Of a DNA stretch of 64,000 nucleotides, positions 24,481 through 46,758 are shown one piece after another. Below the pieces are notes generated by a model. That model made no database searches. It was not told the origin of the DNA and saw nothing but the letters and a program-made list of their open reading frames with translations. The translations under genes and the position numbers were made by a program. Origin of the DNA: an uncultured Gammaproteobacteria bacterium (GTDB lineage Bacteria > Patescibacteriota > Patescibacteriia > Magasanikbacterales > GWA2-37-8); the NCBI GenBank assembly GCA_964511375.1, contig CAZEEW010000006.1, positions 279 through 64,278 on the forward strand, written 5' to 3'. Every line of letters starts with the position of its first letter. Within the stretch, counting starts at the first letter, position 1.

Positions 24481-24509
24481 TTGACGATTACCTACTTTTC
24501 CGGTATATT
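24481..24509 (+). promoter_or_regulatory. sigma70-like promoter TTGACG-17-TATATT driving the GC-rich cassette 1
   Basis: Near-consensus hexamers with 17-nt spacer, about 125 nt upstream of the ATG. Confidence 0.45.
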
Positions 24510-24534
24510 ATTCGACTGTTCTTTTACAAGCACA

Positions 24535-24586
24535 CCGAGGCGAGCTCTAAGTGGACATCTCTATGCCCCTTTAGAGCTCACCTCGG
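24535..24586 (+). promoter_or_regulatory. 5'UTR hairpin: 16-bp inverted repeat CCGAGGCGAGCTCTAA/TTAGAGCTCACCTCGG with 20-nt loop
   Basis: Read directly; sits between promoter and RBS AAAGGAG. Confidence 0.4.
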
Positions 24587-24634
24587 AACAGATTCAAGGT
24601 TGAGCGCAGAATACCGCAGCGGAAAGGAGAATAC

Positions 24635-25066
24635 ATGCACCGCTGCGACGCCGTTCTGATCTCGTGTTTCGACTGGCGCATCCGGCGTCGGGTAGACGCC
24701 TGGATGCAATCGCAGGGTTACTTCACTTACGATCCCCTGCCGTATCCGGGGATCGTTGGTGTGATCAACTCTCCAACCTGCCCTGAAGGTCGGGAATTCG
24801 TGTTCCAGGGCGTGGCGAAGTCCCTCCGGCTCCATGCGCCCCACGACATCGTCGTCGTCACCCACGACGACTGTGGGGCGTTCGAGAGGTTCTTCTCCTC
24901 GCCTGAGGAAGAACGCTCATTCCACCACGAGCAGCTGCGCCTCGCGGCTGCTCTCATTCGGGCGCGCTGGCCCGAAGGGCCGGCGATTCGCCTGCTGTAC
25001 CTGACCGGTACGGCGTCCGTCGTGGACGCCAACACCGGTCATATCACGGTCGAGGAGCTGTCCTAG
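24635..25066 (+). CDS. beta-carbonic-anhydrase-like small protein (143 aa), GC-rich foreign-looking gene
   Basis: CxDxR (SCFDWR) and HxxCG (HDDCGA) beta-CA zinc-ligand motifs; AAAGGAG RBS 5 nt upstream; GC3-biased codons unlike host. Confidence 0.55.
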   Translation: MHRCDAVLISCFDWRIRRRVDAWMQSQGYFTYDPLPYPGIVGVINSPTCPEGREFVFQGVAKSLRLHAPHDIVVVTHDDCGAFERFFSSPEEERSFHHEQLRLAAALIRARWPEGPAIRLLYLTGTASVVDANTGHITVEELS

Positions 25067-25206
25067 CCCTCGACCTCTCCTGCCTTGGCCCGCTCCGGGC
25101 CAGCTCCATTTGGGCCCGGCGTCGTTCTTCGGCTCCTGGTCTCAAGAGAATGTATTTTAAATGTATCTTCTTGAGAGCCGAAGAAAATGTGCTTTAAAGA
25201 TACAGT

Positions 25207-25237
25207 AAAACACTCCTTTTTTAGGGAGTGTTTTGTT
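25207..25237. terminator. rho-independent terminator hairpin AAAACACTCC-loop-GGAGTGTTTT + T-run, shared by cassette 1 (+) and uppP (-)
   Basis: Perfect 10-bp stem then TTGTT; lies between two convergent genes. Confidence 0.55.
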
Positions 25238-25251
25238 ATATTTTTAAAGTA

Positions 25252-26028
25252 TTAAATAAACAGGATAATTAACCAGATACTAGCCAGGATTATCCTATAC
25301 CACCCAAAGCCTTCAAAAGTATGGTTTTTAATAAAGCGAAGCAGAAACTTAATCGCAAAGAGAGCAACGATGAAAGAGGTAACAAAACCAAATGCTAAAG
25401 TCACCCACTCGCTTTGACTAAAGGCAAAGTTAGATTTTATAAGATCAAGGCCAGTGGCAGCCGCCATAGTTGGCACTGCTAAAAGAAAAGAAAATTCAAT
25501 AATCGTTTTTCTGTTTAGCCCTAAAAGCAAACCTCCAATAATTGTTGCCGCCGCCCGGGAAACACCAGGCACAATAGCTAATGACTGGAACAGACCAATA
25601 AGACCAGCCTGTTTGTATGATATATCTTCTAAGTTATTTTCTGGTAGTTGCGGCTTCTTTGAATACCATTTTTCAAATATGATCATAAGTATACCGCCGA
25701 CCAATAGGGCTACCAACACGACGATTGTGTTGCCAAGCAAAAATTTTTTAATCAGAGAATAAAAAATTAGACCAATAATTGCCGTTGGTACAAACGCGGT
25801 TGCTACTTTTAAAAATAACGTTCGGCTTGACCAAATTTTGTTCCAGTAAAGTACCACGACAGATAATATAGCCCCTAGTTGGATAGCAATTTCAAAACTT
25901 TTCCAAAATTCGGTATCGGGAAGATTCAATAAATTTGCCGTCAAAGTTAAATGGCCGGTAGAAGAAATAGGTAAGAATTCCGTAATCCCCTCAACTATCC
26001 CGAGAATAATCGCCTGGATGTGCATCAT
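25252..26028 (-). CDS. uppP: undecaprenyl-diphosphatase
   Basis: BacA signature GxxEGxTEFLPISSTGH. Confidence 0.85.
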   Translation of the reverse strand: MMHIQAIILGIVEGITEFLPISSTGHLTLTANLLNLPDTEFWKSFEIAIQLGAILSVVVLYWNKIWSSRTLFLKVATAFVPTAIIGLIFYSLIKKFLLGNTIVVLVALLVGGILMIIFEKWYSKKPQLPENNLEDISYKQAGLIGLFQSLAIVPGVSRAAATIIGGLLLGLNRKTIIEFSFLLAVPTMAAATGLDLIKSNFAFSQSEWVTLAFGFVTSFIVALFAIKFLLRFIKNHTFEGFGWYRIILASIWLIILFI

Positions 26029-26458
26029 AATGTTTTAAATCACGTAAATGATGTATTTGCTCTATGATTTGCCGTATTAGGTCACTAATAATTACTCTTA
26101 TTTGTACCACATTAATTCCCATGGTTTCAAAGCGCTTAGCGAATATTTTTTGCGTACCCTCGATCGCTACTCTGACTCTTTCTAATTTAGTTTTAACCAT
26201 TTCGAAAATATCTATCTCACTATATTCTAGATTAGCCTCCCGCCTCTGGCCATATTCCGTATCAATCATTCTTACCAAGTCAATAAACTTCAGATCTTTT
26301 AGCAAACCAACAGTACGAATGGTATCTGAAGAAAAAAGCGTCTCTAACTCTTGTTCAATAAAGTGACCGGCACGAGCAATTTCTGTTGGAGATTGCTCAC
26401 GCAGAGCGTCTAAGTGACTAGGTTTCTTCTCTGACATATTATAAATTGAATTTTTCAA
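25991..26458 (-). CDS. hypothetical protein
   Basis: ORF track only. Confidence 0.35.
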   Translation of the reverse strand: MKNSIYNMSEKKPSHLDALREQSPTEIARAGHFIEQELETLFSSDTIRTVGLLKDLKFIDLVRMIDTEYGQRREANLEYSEIDIFEMVKTKLERVRVAIEGTQKIFAKRFETMGINVVQIRVIISDLIRQIIEQIHHLRDLKHYDAHPGDYSRDS

Positions 26459-27758
26459 AGTGTAACTGGTTTTTATTTACACCAATAGCTAAAACTTCAG
26501 CCAAAAGTTTTTTGGTCATAGCTGCTGGTCCGCACAAATAAATATCTCGCTCTTTTAAATCCGGTACTAAACGAGAAATTTTTTCCCGGTCAATATTTCC
26601 CTTTTCACCAGGGTATTTTTCGTCGCCACTAATAACATACACCACCTTTAAACTTGGATACCTGACCTTTAATTCCTCTAATTCGTCTTTAAAGATTATT
26701 TCGTTCTCAGTGCGATTCCCGTACAAAAGAACAACATCTTGTTTCTTTTTGCCTAATACTTCGACAAGGGATCGGAGTGGTGTAATGCCAACTCCTCCAG
26801 CCGCGAATAGGAACTTACCACTTTGGCCAAAATTGGCTGTAAATACGCCGTGAGGGCCATCGACTATAACCTTCGTGCCAATTTTAATTTGTTCAACTTT
26901 ATTTGAAAAGTCCCCTAAACTTTTTATGGTAATCCGGATATATCCACCGTTAGGTGCAGCAGAATAGGAATACGGGTGTTTTTCGAACCAAAACCCTTTC
27001 TGGTAAAAACGGTAGAAAGCAAATTGACCGGCTTCAAACAAATATTCCCCCATTCGTTTCCCGGTTATATATATAGACACTGTGCTAGGTGTTTCACGAA
27101 CTATCTTTTGCACAGTAAAATCATGCTTCCAAAATAAATAGACCGGTCGTACAAAACGGTAGCCAACTAAATTACCAAACACAAAAGCATACAAAAAGTA
27201 CCAATAGCCCTGGAAAGCCTCATTTTGTAAACTGCTTCCTAATTCAATCTGGTGGCCAAAAGCTAAAAGAATCGCGAAGTAAGTAAAGAGGTGCGTGAAA
27301 TACCACCATTCATATTTTAATCTTTTACGAACAATGGCAATCGACAAAATGACAATACTAATTAAAAGTACTAGCGCCACAATAGCGCTCAAAGTGTCTT
27401 CAAAAACGAAAATGAACTGGTATAACTGTCGCCAAATTGACCAGCTACTTAAAAGTGAATATGCGAATAAAATAAGTAAACCATGAGCTACCACAAACAG
27501 CAACCCAAAGAAACCATTGTAGTGGTGTAGATTAGCTAACTTATCTAACCCAATGTATTTTTCCATCCATTTAACTCTGCCGATCAAAAGCAGTTGCCAA
27601 AGAATTAAGTATACCCCCAAGAGGCCAGATAATCTCCCAAATGCTATGAGGGTACTTTCAAGGTCCGTGCCAACCAAACTCCAAGAACTCTTCGACCAAA
27701 AGTAAAAGATGGGAAGAACTAAGATACTGGCTAAAAGATAAAACGGACTACGATGCAT
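26439..27758 (-). CDS. ferric-reductase-like transmembrane domain fused to FAD/NAD(P)-binding oxidoreductase domain
   Basis: N-terminal 6-TM His-containing domain, C-terminal FNR-like RxYS/GxGxxP pattern (RFYQKGFW..., FAAGGVGITP); start taken at internal MHRSPF to avoid overlap with MFS gene. Confidence 0.55.
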   Translation of the reverse strand: MHRSPFYLLASILVLPIFYFWSKSSWSLVGTDLESTLIAFGRLSGLLGVYLILWQLLLIGRVKWMEKYIGLDKLANLHHYNGFFGLLFVVAHGLLILFAYSLLSSWSIWRQLYQFIFVFEDTLSAIVALVLLISIVILSIAIVRKRLKYEWWYFTHLFTYFAILLAFGHQIELGSSLQNEAFQGYWYFLYAFVFGNLVGYRFVRPVYLFWKHDFTVQKIVRETPSTVSIYITGKRMGEYLFEAGQFAFYRFYQKGFWFEKHPYSYSAAPNGGYIRITIKSLGDFSNKVEQIKIGTKVIVDGPHGVFTANFGQSGKFLFAAGGVGITPLRSLVEVLGKKKQDVVLLYGNRTENEIIFKDELEELKVRYPSLKVVYVISGDEKYPGEKGNIDREKISRLVPDLKERDIYLCGPAAMTKKLLAEVLAIGVNKNQLHFEKFNL

Positions 27759-28962
27759 AGCTTTTATTACGTAAGAGGAACATGAATAAAATCGCTGCCA
27801 AGGCGGCAGTAAAGGCACCAAGATAAAAAGGTGTGGCTGGACTTACATATTTCCAAAGTAACCCCGCTAAAGTTGAGGCGACAAAAGTTAAAAGACCGGT
27901 CAAAGTCAGGTAGGCTCCGATCGCGGTGCCTATTCGCTCTTTTGGAACTAACTCAGAAATGTAGGCCTTGCTTATGCCGTCCGTTAAGCCCATGTAGATT
28001 CCGTACAGGGGGAATAAAAACCAGACCCAGAAAGTGGAGTTAATCAAACCAAAAAATAGATACACAAGAGCAAATAACCAAAATCCAGCCGTTAGCACCT
28101 TGCGTGGACCAATTTTATCACTTAACCAACCTGCGGGATACGAGGATAAGAAATAAGTTACATTGAAAGTAACATAGGCAGTGACCGTCCAAGTAACAGC
28201 TAAACCCAAGTTATTTGCACGCAAAATGAGAAAAGCATCTGAGCTATTGCCAATCGCAAACAGGGCGCTCACCAACAAAAACAGCTTTAAACGAGTATCC
28301 ATGGTTTTCCAATTAAACCTAAAGGGTTTTTCCTCTTTAGGTTTAGCAATCCCCAATTCTTCAGCGCTTTTACGTTTTTCTTTGACAAAAAGAACTAGTA
28401 GGGTTACCCCAATTAACGACGGTATGAAGGCAATAAAAAAAATTGTCCGGTAATTATTTGAATAAAGATGGATAAGTAAGAGCGCCAAAAGCGGCCCAAT
28501 CACTGCACCTAAGCTATCCATTGAGCGATGTAAGCCAAAGGCTCGGCCGCGATAAGCTGGGTCAACACTTTCTAGTATAAGAGCGTCACGCGCTGAGGTC
28601 CGTGTCCCCTTTCCAATCCGGTCAATAACACGAGCGAACAAAACAAAGCCCCAAGTACGCGCTAGACCGATTAATAGTTTAGACAAGGTCGAAAACGAAT
28701 AACCAGCGGTAACAAAAAGTTTACGCCGACGAATTTTGTCGGAGAACCAGCCGGAGACGACTTTTAAAATACTGGCCAAAGACTCAGCAATACCTTCAAT
28801 GATACCAATAATTGTAGCCGGTGCTCCCAAAACCAAATTTAAAAACAGTGGCATTATTGGTACGATCATTTCGGAGGCAATATCATTAAAAAGACTAACC
28901 AGACCCATTACTATGACGTTACGAGAGATTGGTTTTTGATGAGTACTTCCTTGCATAAGCAT
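27748..28962 (-). CDS. MFS transporter
   Basis: 12 TM helices, MFS loop motif GxxSDKIxRRK between TM2-3. Confidence 0.7.
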   Translation of the reverse strand: MLMQGSTHQKPISRNVIVMGLVSLFNDIASEMIVPIMPLFLNLVLGAPATIIGIIEGIAESLASILKVVSGWFSDKIRRRKLFVTAGYSFSTLSKLLIGLARTWGFVLFARVIDRIGKGTRTSARDALILESVDPAYRGRAFGLHRSMDSLGAVIGPLLALLLIHLYSNNYRTIFFIAFIPSLIGVTLLVLFVKEKRKSAEELGIAKPKEEKPFRFNWKTMDTRLKLFLLVSALFAIGNSSDAFLILRANNLGLAVTWTVTAYVTFNVTYFLSSYPAGWLSDKIGPRKVLTAGFWLFALVYLFFGLINSTFWVWFLFPLYGIYMGLTDGISKAYISELVPKERIGTAIGAYLTLTGLLTFVASTLAGLLWKYVSPATPFYLGAFTAALAAILFMFLLRNKSYAS

Positions 28963-29039
28963 TTACAATATGTGCTTATTTTATACTAAAAAAGACAGGA
29001 CTGCAACTATAGTCCTGTCTTTTGGTTTTGTATTTAGGT

Positions 29040-30350: not shown

Positions 30351-30430
30351 AGATTTTGGATTAGAAAAACCATTTGGTAATGGTTGTTAATATTCTCTTG
30401 TATATATTTTTACGCAGAATTTTTTAAGTG

Positions 30431-31000: not shown

Positions 31001-31011
31001 AAGGGCTTATT

Positions 31012-32259: not shown

Positions 32260-32519
32260 AAGGCACCTTCCTCTTTAAGTAAAGTAAGCTTCTTTTCCTT
32301 TCCCCGGTTATACTCCCCGGTCTTTCCGCTCGACAAAATGACCCGGTGACAAGGTATGCTGGAATCGTAATTCTTTTTCAAAATATTACCAACTGCACGG
32401 CAAGCACGCGGGCTACCGGCTAAGTTAGCAACTTCAGCATAAGTTAAAACCTGGCCTTTTGGTATGTTGCGAATAATTTGCTTAACTCGCTCGGTAAAAT
32501 TCAACTTTACTTCTTGCAT
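32256..32519 (-). CDS. MGMT-family (O6-alkylguanine-DNA alkyltransferase C-terminal domain) small protein
   Basis: DNA-binding HTH and active-site PCHRV motif. Confidence 0.6.
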   Translation of the reverse strand: MQEVKLNFTERVKQIIRNIPKGQVLTYAEVANLAGSPRACRAVGNILKKNYDSSIPCHRVILSSGKTGEYNRGKEKKLTLLKEEGAL

Positions 32520-36479: not shown

Positions 36480-36772
36480 GAAGAAATAATTTCTTTGCTC
36501 ATCTGAGAGGTCCGCGGATCACGCGCACGTCGAGCGAATTTCCCCGAGGGAGGGACGATTGTTTAATTTGCCCTGCCTTGTCTTTATCTCTCGTAAAGAC
36601 CAAATCGACGTTTTATAGTCCCCCGAGCTAATAGTTTTCTCCGGGTGGATATGCAAAACGTGTGCTCATTGTAGCAGAGAGGATTTTACCTACAAGCAAG
36701 GTGGAGAGGAAACAAGCTGTTTTTTACAGTTTATTTAGCCGAGAAATTATCCACAACCCTGGGATGAGATCA

Positions 36773-36826
36773 TTGACTTTAACCTTATAGTGTGGTACAA
36801 AGGACAGTTCAAAAACTGTTCTTTTT
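36773..36826 (+). promoter_or_regulatory. weak promoter-like TTGACT-17-TACAAA followed by small hairpin ACAGTT-CAAAA-AACTGT + T-run (possible attenuator/terminator) upstream of cassette 2
   Basis: Read directly; -10 is poor, function uncertain. Confidence 0.25.
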
Positions 36827-36841
36827 AAATTAATTTTGGCT

Positions 36842-36896
36842 AAGCTGACTTGCATAGTGGACATCTAACACAGGTGTTTAGTGTACCAGTCAGCTT
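36842..36896 (+). promoter_or_regulatory. 5'UTR inverted repeat AAGCTGACT ... AGTCAGCTT (9-bp stems, about 37-nt loop) upstream of cassette 2 ORF
   Basis: Read directly. Confidence 0.35.
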
Positions 36897-36954
36897 TGGA
36901 AAAACCACAGAACCAACCTGTGATGATTCAGGTTGAAGAAGCAGGGAGGCAACA

Positions 36955-37299
36955 ATGGGAGTGTTTCTCGTCCATCTGATCGTCCATCTCCTGGTCAGTG
37001 CTCTGATGGCGGGGGGAACCTACTTCTTCAGGGCACGACGGGCCCTGAAGAACGGGAAACACCTCAACGGGACGTTGACCGGAATGGTTAACGTCCTTAG
37101 CTGGACGCTGGCCCCAGTCTTCGCCAGCATAATTGTTCCGTATCCTGAAGAGCGGTCACTGAGACTGTGGTGGATCTCGGTGGCAGCCGCTTACCTGCTT
37201 AGTGCCGTTGCCATCTGGGTGAGTATTTTCCTCGCCCGGAGTTTGACTGGCTACGAACCACCGTATCCCACCGTGGAGGATGAATTGCCCACCGACTGA
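36955..37299 (+). CDS. small GC-rich membrane protein (114 aa, 3-4 TM), foreign-looking
   Basis: ORF track; RBS GGAGG 6-7 nt upstream; high GC3 codon usage unlike host; hydrophobic helices. Confidence 0.5.
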   Translation: MGVFLVHLIVHLLVSALMAGGTYFFRARRALKNGKHLNGTLTGMVNVLSWTLAPVFASIIVPYPEERSLRLWWISVAAAYLLSAVAIWVSIFLARSLTGYEPPYPTVEDELPTD

Positions 37300-37333
37300 G
37301 CAGACCGCACGTCTCATCCGAAGGGATCGCGCG

Positions 37334-37397
37334 CTCGTACATGGCTCGGTCTCTAGAGTAACTAAGTAATTAGTTCTTCTAGAGAGTTATGTACGAG
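37334..37397. repeat. 64-bp nested imperfect palindrome (CTCGTACAT...CTCTAGAG-T-AACTAA-GTAA-TTAGTT-CTTCTAGAGAG...ATGTACGAG) 3' of cassette 2 ORF
   Basis: Read directly; outer 9-bp arms perfect, inner arms perfect/near-perfect. Confidence 0.5.
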
Positions 37398-37404: not shown

Positions 37405-37436
37405 AAAAATACCTACCTAAGTGGGGGGTATTTTTT
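37405..37436. terminator. intrinsic terminator AAAAATACC-13nt loop-GGTATTTTT + T-run, shared by cassette 2 (+) and tdk (-)
   Basis: 9-bp stem with flanking A/T runs on both strands between convergent genes. Confidence 0.45.
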
Positions 37437-37453
37437 AATAAATTTAAATACTG

Positions 37454-38848: not shown

Positions 38849-38985
38849 ATAATTTTGTTAAAATTTTACAGCTATATGCTAACTCGACTCCGTCTATTCG
38901 TCAAGCGACGAAATACATAATTTTCCCTACAAGTAAAGAGGAAAACAAAAACACGAGCCGAAACTCATGTTTTAATATTTTATCT

Positions 38986-40302
38986 TTATCCAATCGCTCT
39001 TTCTGAGAGCAAGCCAACTGACATGCTAAGAATTGAAGCCGCACTCCAGGCTTGTTTTTTACATGCCAGCTGACCATTACGCGAACAATAATCAGCGTAA
39101 TTATCCCCATCAAAAACAAATAGTTCAATTGGTGTATCAAAATGCTGTATGGCACGAATGACCGCCTCTTTTACCCGCCTACCCTCTTGTACAAAACCTA
39201 AATCTTCTAGCCCGTCAGCGATTAAAGAATTATCGTGTGGCCAGATAGAACCATTATGATAACTATTTGGACTATAATTTTTTGACCGCTTACTAAGTGT
39301 CCGGATACCAGCCCGCGGTTCAAAAAGATCTGGTTGCATTAAACGATCCGCAATATTTTTAATATATTGGTTTTCAATAATACAATCCACTTCACTATCA
39401 CACTTAATATTTTTACTAGCCCAAAGACAATGACCCATCGAAGAACGAGGACTGATTAATGGTTTGCCCGTGCCGTCTATTGCATAGGCCAACTCGATAT
39501 TTTCCAACCCATCTTTTAAGACGAATTTTTCATTAAAGTTTTCTTTTAAATGATCAGCTCTAAGCTTCAAAAGATTCGCAAAATCTGGCCTCTCTTCTTT
39601 AAAGTAGTCGTCCCACAGCCGCAGCGCTAAGTAAGCATAAGCTTGGACTTCCACTGGGGCAATGGGATAAACTGGCACAGTGCCGTCTTCATGAAATATC
39701 GACTCTTCACTATCCATCCAGCTTTGGGTCTTGAGCCCGCCATGAGTGCGCTCGGGCGGAAACTTGTAATCAATAAACCCATCGTTATCACTGTCACCAA
39801 AGTTAAGCACCCAATTCAAAGCTGCTTCGATATTTGGCATAATTTGGAGAACGAACCCATCGTCTTTAGATGCTTGCAAATGCCGATAGATTGCAATCAG
39901 GAAAAGAGGTGTTGCATCAACTGTATCGTAATTTTTCATTGAACCATCGTCATAAACATACCATGGTCTCTCCAAATTTACTGTTAGTTGCTCATGGTTA
40001 TTAAGGCGGTATTCATGAATACATTTGCCCGGCTCCTCCCCACTCTCAATATTTACTACCTTCCCCTGCAGACTAGCTAAAGTAGTTAATACTTTTTTAG
40101 ATAGCACTAAGATATGTTCGGAATCACTGTTTGCATAAGGAACGGCCCGTAATAATTTGAGTATAGTAATAAGAGAATCCCGGCCAAAAATACACCCATA
40201 AATTTCTTCTTTGTGTGACGCTAAAATACCCTGCTCAGTCTCTAGTTCACGAATGGTTTTCCAGCCCAGGCCGACCAGATGGTCCAAATTAAACTCCTTC
40301 AT
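38986..40302 (-). CDS. six-hairpin (alpha/alpha)6 glycoside hydrolase, GDE_C/GH15-like
   Basis: Length and acidic-residue pattern (WMDSEE, DNDGFIDY) consistent with amylo-1,6-glucosidase/glucoamylase-like barrels; weak. Confidence 0.4.
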   Translation of the reverse strand: MKEFNLDHLVGLGWKTIRELETEQGILASHKEEIYGCIFGRDSLITILKLLRAVPYANSDSEHILVLSKKVLTTLASLQGKVVNIESGEEPGKCIHEYRLNNHEQLTVNLERPWYVYDDGSMKNYDTVDATPLFLIAIYRHLQASKDDGFVLQIMPNIEAALNWVLNFGDSDNDGFIDYKFPPERTHGGLKTQSWMDSEESIFHEDGTVPVYPIAPVEVQAYAYLALRLWDDYFKEERPDFANLLKLRADHLKENFNEKFVLKDGLENIELAYAIDGTGKPLISPRSSMGHCLWASKNIKCDSEVDCIIENQYIKNIADRLMQPDLFEPRAGIRTLSKRSKNYSPNSYHNGSIWPHDNSLIADGLEDLGFVQEGRRVKEAVIRAIQHFDTPIELFVFDGDNYADYCSRNGQLACKKQAWSAASILSMSVGLLSERAIG

Positions 40303-40314
40303 GTTAAACGAAAA

Positions 40315-41337
40315 CTATTGATTTAAAATTTTTTTGTAAAGCAGTTCATACTCATCAGTCATTTTATCGGCGCTAAATTCCTGAAGTGAGTAATCGCGAC
40401 AATATTTGCGACTTATTTTATCAATCTTTTTTATAGCGTCAAGCAGACTGGAGATGTTAGTAACTACATATCCAGTTGTACCATGCTTAACAATTTCTGG
40501 TACTGATCCCTTATCAAAGCCAACGACCGGACTGCCACAAGCCATAGCTTCGATCATGGTTAATCCAAATGGTTCGTTCCAAGTCACAGGATGTAAAAAA
40601 CACAGGGCGCGACTCATGAGACGGTTGCGGTCCACTTCATCTACTTCCCCGACCCATTGTATATTATCTCTTAAGTGAGGCTTGATATATTTTCTAAAAT
40701 ATTTAACATCTGGTTCATCCAGCTTCGCTGCTATAATTAATGGTAACCCAGATTTTTGCGCTGCTTCAATGGCAATATGGGTTCCCTTTTCAAGAGATAT
40801 TCGTCCGACAAATAATAAATACCCATCGTGATCAAGACTAAAGGGATAATGACTCATTGGTAACCCGTTATATATTACACTAAAATCTCGTATTTTTAGC
40901 TCTTCCGATTGACTTTTAGAAATACAAACTACTTGTGGACGTCTAATGGCGTCAAACATCGGTCGGACATCTTCATGAAAGTTACCGTGCATTGTAAGTA
41001 AAACCGGAGTACGAGCTAGATTGGCAATTGGTAAACCAATGTAGCCGGTATGGTCATGTATTAGGTCAAAATCTTCTTGGTGTGAGTAGGCCATAGCAAT
41101 GTGGTACATTGTCCAAGTATTTAAACCATAAATGTTATTAAATTTTTTCTCTCGCAAAGCCCCATCAATAACAGAGGATAATTTTGCAGAAGTCAAAGAA
41201 TCATTAGTGGCAAACAAAGTGACATCGTGCCCTCGCTTTACTAACCCCTCAGTAAGCGCGGAAACCACTCTCTCTGTACCGCCATACTTTTTCGGTGGAA
41301 CACGCTCCGTAATCGGCGCAATTTGTGCAATACGCAT
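40315..41337 (-). CDS. GT4-family glycosyltransferase
   Basis: C-terminal EPFGLTMIEAMACGSPVV motif. Confidence 0.75.
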   Translation of the reverse strand: MRIAQIAPITERVPPKKYGGTERVVSALTEGLVKRGHDVTLFATNDSLTSAKLSSVIDGALREKKFNNIYGLNTWTMYHIAMAYSHQEDFDLIHDHTGYIGLPIANLARTPVLLTMHGNFHEDVRPMFDAIRRPQVVCISKSQSEELKIRDFSVIYNGLPMSHYPFSLDHDGYLLFVGRISLEKGTHIAIEAAQKSGLPLIIAAKLDEPDVKYFRKYIKPHLRDNIQWVGEVDEVDRNRLMSRALCFLHPVTWNEPFGLTMIEAMACGSPVVGFDKGSVPEIVKHGTTGYVVTNISSLLDAIKKIDKISRKYCRDYSLQEFSADKMTDEYELLYKKILNQ

Positions 41338-41427
41338 ATATTATTCATTTTTTTGATTTAAAACACGCCATATGGTATTGAAAACTAAAAAGAACACCCT
41401 GACAAGAGCGTTCTATCAAAATACGAT

Positions 41428-42579
41428 CTATTTGTTCTGTCTACTTACAAGTGAAGCAGCAAGGAAAGTAGCAAGAGGTAACGACAAGGCGACACCAATG
41501 CTTCCCACTAGAGTTCGTACAATTTCCGTTGCAATTACCTCATTATTTATGGCTTGGGTAAACCCAACTGGAGGGTTTTGGTTAAGTTTAAATAACAGCA
41601 GTAACGGCAGTGATGCGCCGGTGTAAGTTAAAAATAACGTATTAACAATTGCCCCAAGGTGAGTGTTGCCAATGGTGTAAGCAGCACGGAAAGTTTGCCA
41701 TAGAGTATAGTTAGGATTAGCCTCGCGGATTTGTTTGACTGCTTCAATTTGACCGACTATTACATCGTCTAACACACCAACAGCGCCAATTAATATGCCG
41801 GCCAAGAGTAGGCCCTGAAAGTTTACCGGCGTATTGGTTGCTCCAATTAAGAATACCGCTTCTTCTTGTGCTAAGCCAGTTAGTCTTGTTAACTTGGTAA
41901 ATAACCAGGACAAGAAGAGAATGATGGACAAAGAAAGAAGAATACTGACAATTGCCAAATGAGCCTTTTTATTCAATCCCTCGGTAATGTAGATAATGAT
42001 TGTTAAAATCAGGAAAGAACCAGTTAAGCCAACTAACAATGGATTATGCCCGTTTAAGATCAGTGGTAAGATAAAATACATGATAACCACAAAGCTCAAT
42101 ACTAATCCGACAATTGATTTTAGACCTTTCCACCTACCAACTGCCAAAACTGTCAGGGCAAAAATTATCGCCAGGGCGTAAAGATAACCACGACGAACAA
42201 AATCTACAACATAATACTCATCTTCTCCTTGAATGCTTTTAACATAATTGACGACTACTCGATCCCCTATTTTATAGTTCTGGGAATTAGCGACATCTAC
42301 TTCAGAAATACCATTAAACGTCACGACTCTACCTTTAAACTCTCCAGTAAGCCCAAGCAAACGTAGATTTTGTTGTTTAGCTTTACTACCACCAGGCCGC
42401 ACTATCTCTCTTTCTTGGATTACTTCCGTTACCTTAGCTTCAAATAATACTTGCTGAACATTTTCTATGTTTTCGTCGGCTTTCGGTACTTGTGCGGCAG
42501 CAAAGGAAATATTAGAAAAAAGTCCAGCAATTAACAGGACTAAGAATAATATTAAGCTAGAAATTTTTTTAAATATCAT
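41428..42579 (-). CDS. polytopic membrane protein (YibE/F-like)
   Basis: Signal/TM then soluble domain then about 6 TM helices; weak family call. Confidence 0.35.
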   Translation of the reverse strand: MIFKKISSLILFLVLLIAGLFSNISFAAAQVPKADENIENVQQVLFEAKVTEVIQEREIVRPGGSKAKQQNLRLLGLTGEFKGRVVTFNGISEVDVANSQNYKIGDRVVVNYVKSIQGEDEYYVVDFVRRGYLYALAIIFALTVLAVGRWKGLKSIVGLVLSFVVIMYFILPLILNGHNPLLVGLTGSFLILTIIIYITEGLNKKAHLAIVSILLSLSIILFLSWLFTKLTRLTGLAQEEAVFLIGATNTPVNFQGLLLAGILIGAVGVLDDVIVGQIEAVKQIREANPNYTLWQTFRAAYTIGNTHLGAIVNTLFLTYTGASLPLLLLFKLNQNPPVGFTQAINNEVIATEIVRTLVGSIGVALSLPLATFLAASLVSRQNK

Positions 42580-44254
42580 GTATTGCTAAACTCATCTCTT
42601 TCTTTTGTTCACTGCGTAAGAGTTTAAAGGTTCGCGCTGTATGGCGTTTATCCTTTAAGAAACGCTCAATCCACTGACCACCTAGAAGATGCGGCAACAT
42701 TACGTAATCAGCGCCAGCATTGTACAAATCCTTAGCGTATTTGTAATGATAAAGATTGGCGATGATATATGCTTTTGAACCCTGGGCTCGAATGTGGTTT
42801 ATTAAAGTCTTCTGGTCATCTGGAGCAGGAATCGTTAAAACAATCATTTTGGCCTTGGCTAAAGGCAGGAGTTCCAAAAATTCCACATCCGCTGCATCGC
42901 CAAAAAATGTATTTATACCTTTGGATTTTAATTTGTTGACTACCTCGGGGTTAAAATCCACAACAGCAAAAGATATTTTTTTGTCCAGCAATGCCTCGCA
43001 AGCTTTCCAGCCTATGCGGTGATAACCAAAAAGCCAGACATCGTAGTTCTCCACCTTTTTGCCAACCTGACGGTGTTCATCTTTACCAAATAAACGGAAG
43101 AATGGTAAAAAGAAACGGTATAGCTGCTCGTTATAGGTTATGAGGTAGGAAGATGAAAAAATAGTTGCCAAAGCAACAATAGTAAAAATCGTAATTTCAT
43201 CTCCTCCCAGATGCCCTAGTTGCCGACCAGTAAACAATACGACAAATCCGAATTCGCTAACCTGTGAAGCGGTCAAACCAATTAAAAAGCTATTTCTTCT
43301 GGTAAAGCGCGAGGAACGAAAGAGAAAAAATAAAATTAATGGATTACCTATAATAATGAACAAGGCTAACGCGATTCCTGGCCAGACAATGTTTGAAACA
43401 TTAGACAGCCCGACTTCACTCCCGAGGATAATAAAGAACAAAACCAAGAAAAAGTCGCGTAAGGGTTTAATTCGGCTCGCTATTTCTGGTTGGTAAGGAG
43501 ACGAGCCAAGGGACAGTCCAGCGGCCATTGCCCCCATTTCAATCGAAAAACCAGCACCATAGACTAGACTCGCAACAGCAAAACACCAAGTAATTGTAAA
43601 TATAAACAAAAATTCACTTGATGAGGCAATACGGTTTAAAAGTCTCGGCAGCAAGTATTTGGCAACAAAGAAAATTGCTAGGAAAAGCAAAACGCCCTTG
43701 ATCAGTAACTCGACAATGTATTCGCTCGCGCCACCGCCTTGCTGCATAACTCCGAGCGCAACCAAAATTGCAATCGCAATCAGGTCTTGGACCAACATCA
43801 AGCCAATCGTGTAACGACCATAAACACTCTCCGTATCTTTTTTATCATTCAAAAGCTTTAGAATAACGATTGTGCTAGAAAAAGTAATTGTCACTCCTAA
43901 ATATATTGCAGAAACCCAGTTTAAACCAAGTGAATATACTATCAAGGCACCAAGAGCGGAAGTGATAAGGACTTGAATTATACCAACTGAAACCACTGTT
44001 TTACCTACCTTTTTAATGTAATTGAAATTGAGGTTCAACCCAACCACGAATAATAACAAAACAATGCCAAATTGGGAAAAGGCATTAAATAGATTTTCAT
44101 CGCCATGAAGAAGATTCAAAAACAGCGGACCGCAAACTACACCCGCTACAATATAGGCCACGATTAACGGTTGGCGCAGAAGACGAACAATAAAAGCGAC
44201 TGAGACAGTAACACTAAGTAGTATGCTGACTTGAAAGAAAATATTTTCTGTCAT
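42569..44254 (-). CDS. CPA2-family cation:proton antiporter with C-terminal TrkA/RCK domain
   Basis: About 12 TM Kef-like core then Rossmann GxGxxG (LFGYHRIGW) RCK domain. Confidence 0.7.
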   Translation of the reverse strand: MTENIFFQVSILLSVTVSVAFIVRLLRQPLIVAYIVAGVVCGPLFLNLLHGDENLFNAFSQFGIVLLLFVVGLNLNFNYIKKVGKTVVSVGIIQVLITSALGALIVYSLGLNWVSAIYLGVTITFSSTIVILKLLNDKKDTESVYGRYTIGLMLVQDLIAIAILVALGVMQQGGGASEYIVELLIKGVLLFLAIFFVAKYLLPRLLNRIASSSEFLFIFTITWCFAVASLVYGAGFSIEMGAMAAGLSLGSSPYQPEIASRIKPLRDFFLVLFFIILGSEVGLSNVSNIVWPGIALALFIIIGNPLILFFLFRSSRFTRRNSFLIGLTASQVSEFGFVVLFTGRQLGHLGGDEITIFTIVALATIFSSSYLITYNEQLYRFFLPFFRLFGKDEHRQVGKKVENYDVWLFGYHRIGWKACEALLDKKISFAVVDFNPEVVNKLKSKGINTFFGDAADVEFLELLPLAKAKMIVLTIPAPDDQKTLINHIRAQGSKAYIIANLYHYKYAKDLYNAGADYVMLPHLLGGQWIERFLKDKRHTARTFKLLRSEQKKEMSLAIHDI

Positions 44255-44314
44255 GAACGCACTTAGAAAAATACGTTGTTAGTATAACATATTTTCTTCT
44301 ATTCGTCATTAGTC

Positions 44315-45106
44315 TTACCTTATCCAACCTTTTGTGGTCCGATGAAAATAGTGTCGTTGAGCCACATAATTTTCATTGGCGGGGTTAAAGTAATATTGTT
44401 CAATGCCAAGAGTATCATTGTGTAAATTAATAAAGTTAAAACTAATCGGTTCACCACGTTGTCGGTCGGAAATTGTTCCCGCTTGTACGAATACCGAATG
44501 ATATATTTTCTCGCCGTGCCCAATTTCACGATGGATAACCGAGCTCACGTGATAATGGCCAGACAAATACAGATCAATTTTTGCCTCGCCAAGCTGACGT
44601 CTAGCCCAAAACGAGCCCCAAGCTAGTTGTCCCTTTCTGAAATGGGGTGGCACTGCTAAAGGATGATGGGTAACAATTATACGGTAATTATCGGTAGAAG
44701 AAAAAAAATCCTTTGCCCGTTTAACTTGTGTCGGGTAAATGCAACCTCTGACAAACAGCCAGGGTTTGGGGGTACAAAGTCCTTGTACCGCGAAATTATT
44801 TTGTCGGTAACTAGGCTCAACATTATCTCCAAAAAAATGCGAATAAACCCGTAACGGGTGTTCAATCCGATCTCGCAGACTATATAGCGGTAGATCATGA
44901 TTACCAGGTACCACTAAAGAATCTACCCCCACTTCGTGGATAAATTCTTTTCCTTGCTTAAAGGCCGAAGGTTTAGTCCTCTGGGTAATATCTCCAGATA
45001 TTACTAGAAGATCCGGTTCAAGTGATTTAATGGCGTCGGCCAGAAGCTTCAAGCGACCAATTTTAATCCGGGGAATTTGCAAATCCGAAACATGCACGAT
45101 TTTCAT
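44315..45106 (-). CDS. calcineurin-like metallophosphoesterase
   Basis: Motifs HVSDLQ, GDIT, GNHD. Confidence 0.7.
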   Translation of the reverse strand: MKIVHVSDLQIPRIKIGRLKLLADAIKSLEPDLLVISGDITQRTKPSAFKQGKEFIHEVGVDSLVVPGNHDLPLYSLRDRIEHPLRVYSHFFGDNVEPSYRQNNFAVQGLCTPKPWLFVRGCIYPTQVKRAKDFFSSTDNYRIIVTHHPLAVPPHFRKGQLAWGSFWARRQLGEAKIDLYLSGHYHVSSVIHREIGHGEKIYHSVFVQAGTISDRQRGEPISFNFINLHNDTLGIEQYYFNPANENYVAQRHYFHRTTKGWIR

Positions 45107-45109
45107 AAG

Positions 45110-45994
45110 TCACGGAACAATTATTTTTAAAGCCCGCGGTATCACTCGGTAGTGCAATGGCGTTTTAAACCACAACACTTCCCCATCGACACCAACTGGT
45201 AAAATACTTTTTCGGCTTCTTAACTCAAATTCATGCAAGCCAATTATACTTATTTTGTCATCATCTTTTAATTTTCCTGCGATTGCTTTGACACCCAGCC
45301 AAAGCAAACGGTAACGCGGTAGATTTTCAATCACGCCGATCTGTAAAATTTCAGCTTGGTCAGTCTGCTTATGTCGTAGAAAATCTATACCATAAAGTTC
45401 GTATTGATTATTTCCGACAAATAACCAGCTAATCCGACGATGAATATTCTTCTCGGGATGTACAATGCTTATTTCTAACTCTGGATAATTAAATAATACT
45501 TTTATGCCGGCTTTAAAAAAAGCCACAAATTTATGTTGTCCTTTTTTCCTTAAATTTTCCCTTTCTAAAACAATATCCGTGTACCAGCCAATTAAAGAAA
45601 AATTCAAAAAGTACCGACCATTTAGTTCAGCTACATCAATTTCCTTGGTGTTGCCTTGCAGAATTAGATCACATGCTGCCGTCAAATCCATTGGTATTGA
45701 ATAGTGTTTGGCAAAGTGATTAAACGTTCCGGTTGGGATAACACCAAAAATTTGGTCTTGATTAACTACATAGTTAGCAATAAAGCTAACCGTGCCGTCT
45801 CCACCCATGGCAATAACTGTTGTCGCTGTTAGGAGCAGGGCTTTGATCTTCTCTTCTGTATCCAATGTAGCAAGGCTACTAACAAAGACCTGATCGTATT
45901 TTGTTTTTAATCTTTCCGTTACCAGTTTTATTGCCCCAGGGAACCATTTTAATCCTGATTTAGGATTGTAGATCAAAATTGCAACTGTTGGCAT
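45110..45994 (-). CDS. DAGK_cat-family lipid kinase (YegS/BmrU-like)
   Basis: AMGGDGTV motif. Confidence 0.7.
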   Translation of the reverse strand: MPTVAILIYNPKSGLKWFPGAIKLVTERLKTKYDQVFVSSLATLDTEEKIKALLLTATTVIAMGGDGTVSFIANYVVNQDQIFGVIPTGTFNHFAKHYSIPMDLTAACDLILQGNTKEIDVAELNGRYFLNFSLIGWYTDIVLERENLRKKGQHKFVAFFKAGIKVLFNYPELEISIVHPEKNIHRRISWLFVGNNQYELYGIDFLRHKQTDQAEILQIGVIENLPRYRLLWLGVKAIAGKLKDDDKISIIGLHEFELRSRKSILPVGVDGEVLWFKTPLHYRVIPRALKIIVP

Positions 45995-46063
45995 AGTAAT
46001 TTTATGCTAACATTGCAAAATATCTATGGCAACCTGGCAGAGCATTATTAGATATACCGTAAC

Positions 46064-46092
46064 TGACAATACGGTCATTTGTGTGATATAAA
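46064..46092 (+). promoter_or_regulatory. sigma70-like promoter TGACAA-17-TATAAA for cassette 3
   Basis: Read directly; followed by hairpin GTCCGC-AAAGC-GCGGAC (46098-46114) and RBS GGAGGA 5 nt before ATG. Confidence 0.4.
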
Positions 46093-46139
46093 ATCAGGTC
46101 CGCAAAGCGCGGACTTCATCACCGTCACGGAGGAAACCG

Positions 46140-46658
46140 ATGTCCAAGCGCAACTGGGTGGCTATCAACGAGCTCGAGAACTACCATTTCCGCGTCCTGG
46201 TCGCGACGACCGACGACGCGGAGATCCTGGCCGGGCTCGAGCGGGGCTTCCCCGAGCTCTTCCTCGCGGGCGAGGAGGCACCCCTCTACCCGGTGCCCCT
46301 GTCGGTTGTCCAGAGCCGAGCCCGGGAATTCTCGATGCGCGAGTACCCCGATGAGAAGTGCTGGCAAGAGGACCAACACTTCATCCTGTGCTGGGGCACC
46401 TGCGACGACCTCGACATCCCGACCGCCTTCACCTGGGATGCCGACAACGAGGAGATCCCCCCGGAAATCCTCCAACAGTTCATGGGCCAGAGAGCCCAGG
46501 CCGGCATGACGGTCGTGATCGACGACCGTCGCTACCTGGTCTGGTTCATCGCGTTCAAGGTGGGCGAGGAGATCAAGCCCGGGGACACGTTCGAATCCCC
46601 ACCCAAGCTCGACAGGCTCGACCTCGTCGATGCCGACTTCGTCGACCTCGAGAGCTGA
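46140..46658 (+). CDS. acidic 172-aa hypothetical protein, GC-rich foreign-looking gene
   Basis: ORF track; strong RBS; about 65% GC with GC3 bias; no recognised motif. Confidence 0.5.
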   Translation: MSKRNWVAINELENYHFRVLVATTDDAEILAGLERGFPELFLAGEEAPLYPVPLSVVQSRAREFSMREYPDEKCWQEDQHFILCWGTCDDLDIPTAFTWDADNEEIPPEILQQFMGQRAQAGMTVVIDDRRYLVWFIAFKVGEEIKPGDTFESPPKLDRLDLVDADFVDLES

Positions 46659-46686
46659 TGGCGCTCGCGGCCCAAGGAGGGCCAGA

Positions 46687-46754
46687 CCGGGGCAGGAGAT
46701 ACGTCTCCTGCCCCGGTCAGCTACCTAAACATCTTTTGAGAAGATGTTTTTTTA
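46687..46754. terminator. tandem hairpins: perfect 13-bp stem CCGGGGCAGGAGA-TACG-TCTCCTGCCCCGG then terminator AACATCTT-TTGAG-AAGATGTT + T7; second hairpin also serves the convergent Y-family polymerase gene
   Basis: Read directly. Confidence 0.6.
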
Positions 46755-46758
46755 ATAC

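Follow-up and report, generated by a model that had tools for sequence, protein, structure and literature searches.

Three GC-rich single-gene islands in a CPR chromosome

We analysed a 64-kb stretch of DNA (the window), in which GC content reaches the median plus 0.15 over 250 nt or more in only three places (24521-25200, 36921-37380 and 46061-46800). Each of these islands holds one plus-strand ORF, named here C1 (24635-25066), C2 (36955-37299) and C3 (46140-46658). The minus strand carries 55 of the 60 host ORFs, the cumulative GC skew of the plus strand falls steadily along the window, and all three units lie on the lagging strand. GC3 is 0.78 in C1, 0.68 in C2 and 0.90 in C3, compared with 0.35 +/- 0.04 in 40 host ORFs (z = 9-15). 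Codon usage is mutually correlated among the three (r = 0.33-0.65) and anticorrelated with the host. C1, C2 and C3 are compositionally foreign-looking. A preliminary description of three GC-rich, plus-strand, single-gene islands among host genes that are more than 90% minus-strand agrees with these profiles, and codon usage, which it proposed to compare, sets the three ORFs apart from the host. Judged from related loci, the AT-rich host chromosome is natural and belongs to an uncultured, ultra-small, Magasanikbacteria-like member of the Patescibacteria (CPR).

The three units have strong Shine-Dalgarno (SD) sequences: AAGGAGA at 24624-24630 in C1, GGGAGG at 36944-36949 in C2 and GGAGGA at 46129-46134 in C3, with duplex energies of -9.0, -10.9 and -9.5 kcal/mol, respectively. 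Upstream of host genes there is no SD enrichment (1.7% vs 1.5% in random windows at <= -8 kcal/mol). The duplex energies thus match the earlier claim that strong SDs mark all three units and are mostly lacking in host genes.

C1, a conserved beta-carbonic-anhydrase-like gene

The C1 unit contains the following features.

24481-24509, plus strand: promoter-like site of sigma-70 type, TTGACG-17-TATATT (scanner, 10/12 matches; position kept in the L025 ortholog)
24535-24586, plus strand: leader hairpin CCGAGG-GAGCTCTAAG...CTTTAGAGCTC-CCTCGG (fold z = -4.5)
24614-24647, plus strand: stem CCGCAGCGG/CCGCTGCG with the SD and ATG in the loop (sequence reading and fold)
24635-25066, plus strand: ORF of 143 aa, Pro_CA_2 (beta-carbonic-anhydrase-like, Pfam PF20393)
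25125-25185, plus strand: 3' palindrome with outer stem TTCTTCGGCTC/GAGCCGAAGAA and inner stem TCTCAAGAG/TTCTTGAGA (fold z = -7.1)
25192-25249, both strands score: intrinsic terminator within a longer AT-rich palindrome

The C1 protein matches PF20393 with 42 bits (cutoff 30) and has the motifs C11-x-D13-x-R15 and H77-x-x-C80. Besides the window genome, at least two lineages carry C1 at the same syntenic site with 80% amino acid identity (ortholog P0002) and with the leader, SD and palindrome conserved. The host genes flanking the site are 77-86% identical to their relatives, with 4-fold sites near saturation. In the L025 ortholog, 33 of 35 nt of the SD region are identical. One compensatory C-G to U-A change and one change compatible with G-U pairing preserve the leader stem there, and the hairpin loop has diverged. 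The inner stem of the 3' palindrome is paired in 45 of 45 cells, with one compensatory pair.

C2, a small membrane protein gene within the same frame

The features of the C2 unit are listed below.

36773-36801, plus strand: promoter-like site TTGACT-17-TACAAA with a weak -10 element (read by eye; aligns with C1 promoters; scanner silent)
36796-36827, plus strand: small hairpin at the leader start, containing ACTGTTCTTTT
36842-36896, plus strand: leader hairpin AAGCTGACT...AGTCAGCTT with AGTGGACATCT in its apical part (sequence and fold)
36955-37299, plus strand: ORF of 114 aa, small hydrophobic protein
37323-37397, plus strand: 3' palindrome block with outer stem CTCGTACAT.../...ATGTACGAG and inner stem TCTCTAGAG/TTCTAGAGA (fold z = -6.5)
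37405-37440, plus strand: intrinsic terminator AAAAATACC...GGTATTTTTT (hairpin search, fold)

The C2 protein has approximately three hydrophobic segments and a pI of 8.1. Its ortholog in L036 is 40% identical at the C terminus and sits in a different neighbourhood, with polA downstream and co-directional, which could reflect mobility. The 3' palindrome block is the best-conserved part of the unit: 69 of 75 nt (92%) are identical to L036, compared with 57% nucleotide and 40% amino acid identity in the CDS, and its outer stem contains compensatory changes. Searches found no relatives of C1 or C2 outside CPR-type contigs.

The leaders of C1 and C2 have two exact, colinear 11-mers in common. In both units ACTGTTCTTTT lies equally far from the -35 element, and AGTGGACATCT is found in the apical part of the C1 leader hairpin as it does in C2. 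Their 3' regions (pairwise similarity up to z = 4.1) have a common palindrome core, GGCTC(N0-2)GGTCTCWAGAG...TTCTWGAGAG. The C3 leader lacks sequence similarity to the other two, and its 3' region resembles theirs weakly (z = 1.8-3.1). On these comparisons the C1 and C2 flanks are homologous, and the sequence-level architecture is common to C1 and C2 only, C3 having the general layout alone. The proposal of one architecture for all three units therefore stands for their general build and fails for the sequence-level frame.

RNA folding bears out the described leader hairpins, long 3' hairpins and terminators (z = -4.5 in the leader of C1; between -6.5 and -7.1 in all three 3' regions). The claim that each unit has its own promoter is best supported for C1, where the scanner called a good sigma-70-type site; the C2 and C3 sites are weaker. 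The terminators were also said to serve the convergent host gene; that of C1 scores on both strands, and that of C3 points unmistakably along the plus strand alone. We consider the untranslated-region elements themselves to be under selection, as judged from the fold z-scores, the compensatory changes and the excess conservation of the C2 palindrome over its CDS.

C3, a member of a separate, scattered family

C3 is preceded and followed by smaller elements of its own.

46063-46092, plus strand: promoter-like site CTGACA-18-TATAAA with an upstream TG (read by eye; scanner silent)
46098-46114, plus strand: leader hairpin GTCCGC-aaagc-GCGGAC (hairpin search, fold)
46140-46658, plus strand: ORF of 172 aa, acidic, pI 4.2
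46685-46718, plus strand: perfect 15-bp GC-rich 3' hairpin GACCGGGGCAGGAGA/TCTCCTGCCCCGGTC (fold z = -6.8)
46727-46756, plus strand: intrinsic terminator AAACATCTT-ttgag-AAGATGTTTTTTT (hairpin search, fold)

The leader hairpin is terminator-like when read on the minus strand. C3 belongs to an unnamed family of approximately 170 aa with 103 relatives, the nearest of which is 49% identical. The products are as first described (a beta-carbonic-anhydrase-like C1, a small membrane C2 and an acidic C3), except that C3 is not an orphan. Its predicted structure (pLDDT 94.5) has no fold match in the PDB. The family is widely scattered and separate from C1 and C2. In six of seven contexts (35-49% amino acid identity) the gene is a lone, SD-bearing gene that is GC-richer than its low-GC genome, and one member has native composition in a 59% GC genome. 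In six other contexts, C3-family genes are antiparallel to their neighbours. Members in L040, L041, L043 and L045 have analogous small hairpins 5' of the SD, and the 41%-identical member in L041 has a similar hairpin, GACCGGGACAG...CTGTCCCGGTC, 3' of the gene. In the window, C3 lies within a block absent from the relatives L004 and L005.

Age and origin of the units

The window sequence, island junctions included, is the same in Logan assemblies built from two independent read sets and in one NCBI record, and diverged orthologs with the same junction architecture come from environmental metagenomes of JGI and ENA. Because the islands recur across independent assemblies, they are neither chimeras nor engineered, which excludes the engineered or synthetic insertion once considered for them. 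Nor do the genes look newly acquired: relatives keep C1 at the shared syntenic site, which by the preliminary description's own test speaks against its proposal, and C2 is present in a related lineage. By this comparative evidence at least two of the three (C1 and C2) are old conserved residents whose insertion was not recent. Searches found no donor for C1, C2 or C3. Horizontal transfer of single genes is on record for Patescibacteria, as is its repetition between CPR genomes (PMC12455944).

For C1 and C2, GC4 is near 0.75 in two lineages, and the 4-fold sites (63 and 14 counted) have diverged by 0.64-0.70, roughly half the 1.3-1.9 of host genes. Neutral amelioration does not fit these values, nor the GC richness of the C3 family; this, the missing donor and the different neighbourhood of the C2 ortholog weigh against the reading that follows.

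We interpret the islands, with a probability of about 0.55, as separate, natural, monocistronic, moron-like transcription units that were acquired and are now conserved residents with functional untranslated-region elements. The coding parts would have come from high-GC sources by horizontal transfer and later become stable, functional residents of the Magasanikbacteria-like chromosome. Each unit runs from a predicted, host-style AT-rich promoter through a structured 5' leader, a strong SD, the GC-rich ORF and a long 3' hairpin to a U-tract terminator, which also sets it apart from the host gene converging on it. The most likely role of the untranslated-region elements is at the level of the mRNA: control of translation, and protection or processing of the 3' end or binding of a factor there. 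The C1/C2 frame may be one frame duplicated or may reflect shared regulation, and the two are probably a co-regulated pair. C3 would be an independent acquisition from another gene family; the small leader hairpin, the SD and the GC-rich, terminator-like hairpin that it carries are its own. For C1, C2 and C3, neither a three-gene system nor dedicated insertion machinery is demonstrated.

Alternative explanations

A possible, though rather unlikely, alternative is that selection actively keeps the GC-rich coding sequence and SD, so that the units would be native genes forming an expression class of their own, and not foreign DNA whose signature is fading. In an organism whose other genes initiate without SD pairing, translation of these mRNAs might be confined to some of the ribosomes or to a particular ribosomal state, or their stability might depend on GC-rich structure. 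The reduced 4-fold divergence and persistent GC4 of C1 and C2, the GC richness of the C3 family despite deep divergence, the strong SDs kept by all of these genes against no SD enrichment in host genes, and the near-identical C1 SD region in L025 all point this way. Part of the Parcubacteria lacks the anti-SD, and its loss is frequent in the host's clade (PMC9297842). However, the numbers of four-fold sites are small, amelioration from a GC4 of ~0.97 could reach 0.75 if arrival roughly coincided with the lineage split, and repeated transfer among CPR genomes is known (PMC12455944).

More doubtful is the view that the units are cargo cassettes moved by a mechanism recognising hairpins in single-stranded DNA, of non-autonomous IS200/IS605 type or integron-like, with the leader hairpin and the 3' palindrome as ends or recombination site. 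This would also account for all three units lying on the lagging strand and for the missing target-site duplications, whose absence is expected for IS200/IS605-type elements; no direct repeats or duplications were found bracketing the islands. The same frame surrounds two unrelated cargos, conservation of the palindrome, in stems and loop alike, far exceeds that of the cargo, the C2 ortholog has a different neighbourhood in L036, and the antiparallel placement of C3-family genes is also in keeping. Against this, Pfam searches detected no transposase or integrase anywhere in the 64-kb window, the C1/C2 palindrome as read lacks the attC R''/R' consensus, and the 5' and 3' hairpins within one unit are dissimilar. 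C1 is fixed at one syntenic site across three lineages, and the promoters lie outside the hairpins. Nor did searches point to a multi-copy family: across 241 million metagenome records, matching by exact pattern turned up copies linked to C1 and C2 and otherwise only chance-like hits, and nhmmer found no copies in ~400 kb of related loci. The reported lack of visible transposase, integrase and direct repeats was thus correct, and the suggested common insertion mechanism gains no positive evidence from a recombinase, a target-site duplication or an attC consensus.

Very improbable is joint action of the three products in a coordinated module, of sensor/effector or transport-associated kind, with its genes dispersed, as the preliminary description envisaged. 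The common leader motifs and 3' element of C1 and C2 would fit co-regulation, and units of both types occur together in the window genome and, because L036 and L037 come from sister samples, probably also in the L036/L037 organism. But the C3 flanks differ, C3 lies in the block missing from L004 and L005, and its family occurs in six other contexts with neither C1 nor C2 nearby. The products received no defence, phage or NCBIfam assignments, and no functional link among the three was found. Assembly chimerism, contamination or engineering, at which the sharp GC boundaries, one Logan contig ending within C1 and the GGTCTC and CGTCTC sites read in the 3' elements might hint, is effectively refuted by the identical junctions and the diverged environmental orthologs.

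Comparison with known systems

Read as acquired, now resident transcription units, the islands resemble phage morons, which are single ORFs of deviant base composition, each with a promoter and a terminator, that are inserted between neighbouring genes (PMC4378225). C1, C2 and C3 likewise have one ORF, a promoter-like site and a terminator of their own, and are compositionally deviant and intergenic without gene disruption. Unlike morons, they are part of a cellular CPR chromosome, have no phage genes near them and gave no PHROG matches, and C1 and C2, at a minimum, are long-standing conserved genes and not recent arrivals. They also carry conserved structured 5' and 3' elements, one frame being found on two unrelated cargos.

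As in integron cassettes, an imperfect palindrome containing bulged bases lies downstream of each of several unrelated single ORFs, and its structure is kept across cargos. However, the units have no R''/R' (RYYYAAC/GTTRRRY) consensus, IntI, array or attI; they are dispersed, have their own promoters, and their palindrome is conserved in sequence and not in structure alone. Like IS200/IS605 PATEs and REP/RAYT elements, they have hairpins near both ends, no target duplication and a strand preference relative to replication, which is established for IS608. They differ in that the window has no TnpA or RAYT, the hairpins at the two ends do not resemble each other, copies are few and C1 is syntenic in three lineages.

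Stem-loops that stabilise mRNA include the ompA 5' hairpin, the STAB-SD and 3' retroregulator of Bacillus thuringiensis cry, and REP as a 3' stabiliser. A leader hairpin combined with a long 3' hairpin is the layout expected for two-end protection of a monocistronic mRNA, and the units have, as read from their sequence, a stable leader hairpin and a long hairpin between stop codon and terminator. Conservation of the C2 palindrome down to the loop exceeds what a passive barrier hairpin would need. Strong-SD genes are also known in SD-avoiding organisms, for example in rpsU autoregulation in Bacteroidota. The window resembles that case in having a handful of strong-SD genes in a genome without general SD use, and differs in that these are GC-rich accessory genes rather than ribosomal protein genes.

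Three GC-rich islands on a natural CPR chromosome

Across the whole window, only three stretches of at least 250 nt reach the median GC content plus 0.15, and each holds one plus-strand unit:
24635-25066, plus strand: C1, ORF for a Pro_CA_2 protein
36955-37299, plus strand: C2, ORF for a small (114-aa) hydrophobic membrane protein
46140-46658, plus strand: C3, ORF for an acidic 172-aa protein of its own family

The GC content at third codon positions is 0.78 in C1, 0.68 in C2 and 0.90 in C3, against 0.35 ± 0.04 in 40 host ORFs, and codon usage is correlated among the three genes (r = 0.33-0.65) and anticorrelated with that of the host. The preliminary description of three GC-rich, plus-strand, single-gene islands thus holds far beyond chance. 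Its reading of them as foreign cassettes stands in part: the genes look foreign in composition and the frames of C1 and C2 are truly related, but neither a recent common insertion nor a three-gene system is supported. Two further plus-strand genes (54564-54947 and 56154-56681) were considered for the same class and rejected, having no SD site and no hairpin frame. GC-rich islands also exist in two Magasanikbacteria loci of about 40% GC (L010 11976-12686; L012 6258-7436 and 7625-9709; GC3 0.55-0.76), but these genes lie on the host strand without a hairpin frame, and their layout differs from that of the window units.

The window has a GC content of about 40% and is a segment of a bacterial chromosome with housekeeping genes, identified with Pfam, that include the ATP synthase operon, aminoacyl-tRNA synthetases, IscS/NifU, BacA, DinB and BipA. 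Fifty-five of the 60 ORFs are on the minus strand, and the plus-strand GC skew declines steadily. Among species-representative genomes, relatives of the Na+/H+ exchanger come solely from Patescibacteria/CPR (best 86% amino acid identity), many of them named Magasanikbacteria. Logan contigs from two read sets (SRR5011273 and SRR6488411) are 100% identical to the window, and the proteins are also present in an NCBI record. The sequence is therefore natural, environmental DNA. The suggestion of an engineered insertion or an assembly chimera is excluded by these identical independent assemblies and by the existence of environmental orthologs. A phage origin was likewise rejected, as megablast and blastn against 50,697 phage records gave no match.

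Several side observations concern the same chromosome segment. The SRR6488411 contig (L003) starts with 39 nt that match window 23524-23563 at 95% instead of the adjoining sequence at 27719, probably owing to an artefact of the assembly graph where the contig ends; this contig also terminates within the GC-rich C1 ORF. The nearest relatives lack window blocks 44300-48800, 38920-41454 and 50802-54128. Both L004 and L005, the loci of these closest relatives, lack the block of metallophosphoesterase, DAGK, C3, DinB and LexA-like S24 peptidase genes (about 44.3-48.8 kb); L004 additionally lacks the GDE_C-like hydrolase and GT1 pair, and L005 the TIG-domain protein of 1108 aa. Gene content thus varies in this part of the chromosome. 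A tRNA gene (60111-60407, minus strand) is split by a group I intron (60159-60383; Rfam RF00028, 82.8 bits). The acceptor/D arm formed by its exons is normal, and their T arm ends in CCA. ARAGORN finds the gene solely with the intron allowed or removed, and the anticodon identity is uncertain. A short patch of about 0.5 GC (36500-36560) lies directly upstream of the start of the minus-strand GH6 cellulase gene. The GH6 and GH113 genes have high GC2 with host-like GC3 and may be older, ameliorated acquisitions.

Translation signals and structured untranslated regions

All three units carry strong, correctly spaced SD sequences, with duplex energies of -9.0 (C1), -10.9 (C2) and -9.5 kcal/mol (C3). 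Host starts in the window show no SD enrichment: 1.7% of upstream regions reach -8 kcal/mol or lower, against 1.5% of random windows. This absence persists when alternative starts are permitted, and the median duplex energy of host genes is 0.0 kcal/mol, a value that refers to starts in the window, the 16S rRNA gene lying outside it. Some Parcubacteria are reported to have lost their anti-SD motif (PMC9297842), in line with the missing enrichment.

Compared with shuffled sequences, the C1 leader folds with a z-score of -4.5, and the three regions of 3' hairpin and terminator with z-scores of -6.5 to -7.1. SD energies and fold z-scores together bear out the earlier account of SDs unlike those of the host, leader hairpins and 3' hairpins with terminators. 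The C1 promoter is a good sigma-70 match, and by eye the promoter-like sites of C2 and C3 are weaker. In the 5' and 3' elements, no Rfam family reached the gathering threshold; the group I intron alone does so in the window. Scanning the units at permissive thresholds returned only hairpin- or terminator-like matches below gathering (best 29.6 versus 47 bits), which speaks against a riboswitch or other RNA known to Rfam in these elements.

C1 is a conserved resident

The C1 product matches Pro_CA_2 (PF20393; 42 bits versus a cutoff of 30, E = 1.3e-10, residues 3-114), membership being defined by a family HMM score above the curated gathering score. An ortholog with 80% identity bears the same precomputed domain. 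The translation contains the zinc-ligand pattern C-x-D-x-R ... H-x-x-C (C11-F-D13-W-R15, H77-D-D-C80). Classical Pro_CA (PF00484) scores 16.3 bits, under its cutoff of 25.7, so C1 is not a canonical beta-CA. We regard it as a putative beta-class carbonic-anhydrase-like protein.

The 80% identical ortholog is the sole relative in an index of 5.8 billion proteins and was located in JGI and ENA metagenome contigs (locus L025). Its neighbourhood is that of the window (Rrf2, RNase-H-like gene, class II aaRS, the unit and, further on, BacA), and it is a GC-rich island there too. The entire unit can be aligned across the two lineages, from the promoter region and leader hairpin through the SD-in-loop stem (33 of 35 nt identical) to the 3' palindrome and terminator. 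The leader stem is kept through one compensatory and one G-U-compatible change, whereas its loop has diverged. A third lineage (L037) has the same 3' end. With this synteny, the aligned unit and flanking host proteins 77-86% identical to their relatives, C1 is a conserved resident. C1 was present at the same site in every relative recovered. Conservation in close relatives had been named in the preliminary description as refuting, and for C1 this outcome runs against a recent insertion.

C1 and C2 share a frame

No relatives of C2 were found in the protein index. A metagenome scan with the 3' palindrome pattern recovered the end of a C2 ortholog (L036). Over its C-terminal 68 residues, identity is only 40% in amino acids and 57% in nucleotides. 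In contrast, 69 of the 75 nt of the palindrome block are identical, loop included, and the outer stem carries compensatory changes. In L036, polA follows the unit in the same direction, whereas C2 in the window adjoins the thymidine kinase gene.

The palindromes of C1 and C2 have a common core, GGCTC(N0-2)GGTCTCWAGAG...TTCTWGAGAG. The inner stem is fully paired in five of five C1/C2-type sequences, with one compensatory pair, and the two terminators are alike. The 3' similarity is significant (z = 4.1, 2/500 shuffles). The leaders share two exact colinear 11-mers: ACTGTTCTTTT sits at the same offset from the -35 element in both units, and AGTGGACATCT lies within the apical part of both leader hairpins. 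The Smith-Waterman score of the 5' regions is only modest (z = 2.5), so the case for their homology depends mostly on the two 11-mers and their positions.

Nhmmer found no further copies in about 400 kb of related loci. An exact-pattern scan of 241 million metagenome records gave nine stretches, with L033, L036 and L037 as the only true family members; L031 is doubtful and the remainder look like chance. The frame thus occurs in few copies and goes with C1 and C2. In L031 the palindrome (1570-1614) fits the core pattern, but its surroundings are AT-rich, with GGTCTTG motifs in repeated form and no upstream GC-rich gene; the element may have a distant relative here, or the repeat may be unrelated. 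The contig with the C2 ortholog holds a second GC-rich island (L036 1-500), so such units recur in this lineage. There, a GC-rich ORF end, glycine- and aromatic-rich and resembling a beta-barrel C terminus, is followed by the palindrome CTTGTTGGATCCAAGAAG and a U-tract terminator.

C3 belongs to a separate family

The C3 leader shows no similarity to the C1 and C2 leaders, and its 3' hairpin is different. Pairwise comparison of the flanks thus rejects C3 as a bearer of the C1/C2 frame. C3 is not an orphan, as 103 relatives of about 170 aa (30-49% identity) came up in an exhaustive HMMER search. For the family, no match was obtained in Pfam, PDB sequences, PHROG, PADLOC or NCBIfam. Given the family alignment, AlphaFold reached a pLDDT of 94.5 (34 with the single sequence), and the predicted fold has no match in the PDB.

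We examined seven genomic contexts of the family. One is a genome of 59% GC in which the composition of the gene is native. The other six are low-GC genomes (0.38-0.47) in which the gene has a GC content of 0.51-0.64 and a GC3 of 0.53-0.90. In these six, it has a strong SD, stands alone and is antiparallel to its upstream neighbour and, except in L042, to its downstream neighbour. In three of the seven, the gene upstream of it, in divergent orientation, encodes a TrmB-family regulator:
L041 5086-5820: TrmB-family regulator beside a C3-family gene
L042 2637-3431: TrmB-family regulator beside a C3-family gene
L045 4059-4841: TrmB-family regulator beside a C3-family gene

The arrangement points to a regulator-target pair; in the window, C3 has a DAGK-type lipid kinase as its neighbour instead. 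The L041 member, about 41% identical to C3, keeps a similar 3' hairpin (GACCGGGACAG...CTGTCCCGGTC). The family alignment is too variable for a pattern scan of viral contigs.

Origin and persistence of the units

The three islands are autonomous single-gene units with structured untranslated regions, and parts of these regions are, by sequence comparison, under stronger constraint than the coding sequence. They are most likely moron-like acquired single genes with conserved untranslated-region elements in a CPR chromosome. Their coding parts would derive from high-GC sources and would have been given, or landed beside, host-type promoters and U-tract terminators. The hairpins would act on the mRNA, the C1 stem presenting SD and AUG within its loop, and the 3' palindromes are positioned as a 3'-end protector, processing site or protein-binding site would be. 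The terminators would shield convergent host genes, and the shared frame probably places C1 and C2 under common regulation.

The persistence of their GC richness is not covered by this reading. At 4-fold sites, C1 (63 sites) and C2 (14 sites) diverge by 0.64-0.70, compared with 1.3-1.9 in host genes, and GC4 is about 0.75 in both lineages. Neutral evolution at the host rate since the lineage split would give a GC4 of about 0.6 or lower, even from a start of about 0.98 (F81-type relaxation). In the C3 family, GC richness has likewise lasted, over a much deeper divergence. Either the genes undergo repeated exchange, or selection acts on their composition and SD sites. The conservation of the C2 palindrome, which extends to its loop, also exceeds the needs of a passive hairpin.

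Movement of the units as cassettes by a hairpin-directed mobile mechanism is an unlikely alternative. The frame shared by C1 and C2, the different C2 neighbourhood in L036, the uniform strand and the absence of target duplications are consistent with it. However, the attC consensus is missing, the 5' and 3' hairpins are dissimilar, the frame is low-copy, C1 is syntenic in relatives and the window has no recombinase. The preliminary description saw no transposase, integrase or direct repeats near the islands; in line with it, the 64-kb window has no transposase, integrase or recombinase (Pfam) and no direct repeats bracketing the islands; the proposed search for target-site duplications also returned none. 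Empty sites were not recovered for any unit. L004 and L005 do not extend to the C1 or C2 sites and lack the 44.3-48.8 kb block with C3, and the look-up gave no cassette-free variant at the DAGK neighbour of C3.

A broader proposal, which we consider quite improbable, is an undescribed class of hairpin-framed, SD-dependent CPR accessory genes. GC-rich coding sequence, SD and the sequence-conserved 3' palindrome would be kept against host AT bias and SD-free translation, through hairpin-directed exchange among CPR lineages or a separate translational regime, and the C1/C2 palindrome would be the recognition site of a dedicated protein. The separate regime might consist in a special state of the ribosome or, as the most speculative option, in expression within a high-GC partner organism or in a form suited to one.

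That the three products form one functional module, as the preliminary description proposed, is very unlikely, the C1/C2 similarity being all that speaks for it.

Ordinary horizontal transfer with conserved untranslated regions would be the modest outcome, giving tidy moron-like islets in a cellular genome. Three loose ends merit following: SD sites within an SD-free host, GC richness that has lasted, and a palindrome that is shared and highly conserved. CPR bacteria, most of them uncultured, are ultra-small and believed to rely on other cells. The units are a conserved example of foreign-looking single genes that keep an SD in a genome otherwise not using it, and such defined SD-bearing genes make the question of anti-SD loss in Parcubacteria directly testable. 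The 75-nt 3' element, common to unrelated genes and conserved far beyond their proteins, is a candidate for a new element of cis-regulation or recombination. Lasting GC richness over deep divergence puts the standard model of amelioration after horizontal transfer to the test. With the C3 family comes a confidently predicted fold unmatched in the PDB.

Comparison with known systems

None of the three proteins matched PADLOC at E <= 0.1 or received a defence, phage (PHROG) or NCBIfam assignment; tblastn found no plasmid or phage relatives, and no relatives were found in viral contigs.

Integron gene cassettes were rejected as an identity. The attC sites expected of them (R'' RYYYAAC at the 5' side, R' GTTRRRY at the 3' side) are absent from the three units. 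The outer palindrome boxes of C1 (GTTCTTC...GAAGAAC) and C2 (CTCGTAC...GTACGAG) have the opposite polarity, and the C3 3' element is a perfect GC hairpin without attC-type boxes. An integron has IntI, attI and an array of co-oriented, mostly promoterless cassettes, whereas the window has no integrase and its units lie 9-12 kb apart, each with a promoter-like site.

PATE/REP elements of the IS200/IS605 type have similar left and right hairpins, but the leader hairpin and 3' palindrome of one and the same unit show no convincing similarity. Such elements would also come with a cognate Y1/HUH transposase and many copies per genome; the 64-kb window has no Y1/HUH transposase, and frame copies in the metagenome scan and related loci are only C1- or C2-linked.

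Single-gene transfer is documented in Patescibacteria (PMC12455944). Like phage morons (PMC4378225), each unit has a single ORF, its own promoter and terminator and a base composition unlike that of its neighbours. Unlike morons, the units have no phage or prophage location (no phage or PHROG match), and no site empty of a unit between the same two genes was recovered in relatives. By analogy, the phage moron would be the closest known counterpart, here in a cellular genome and long conserved.
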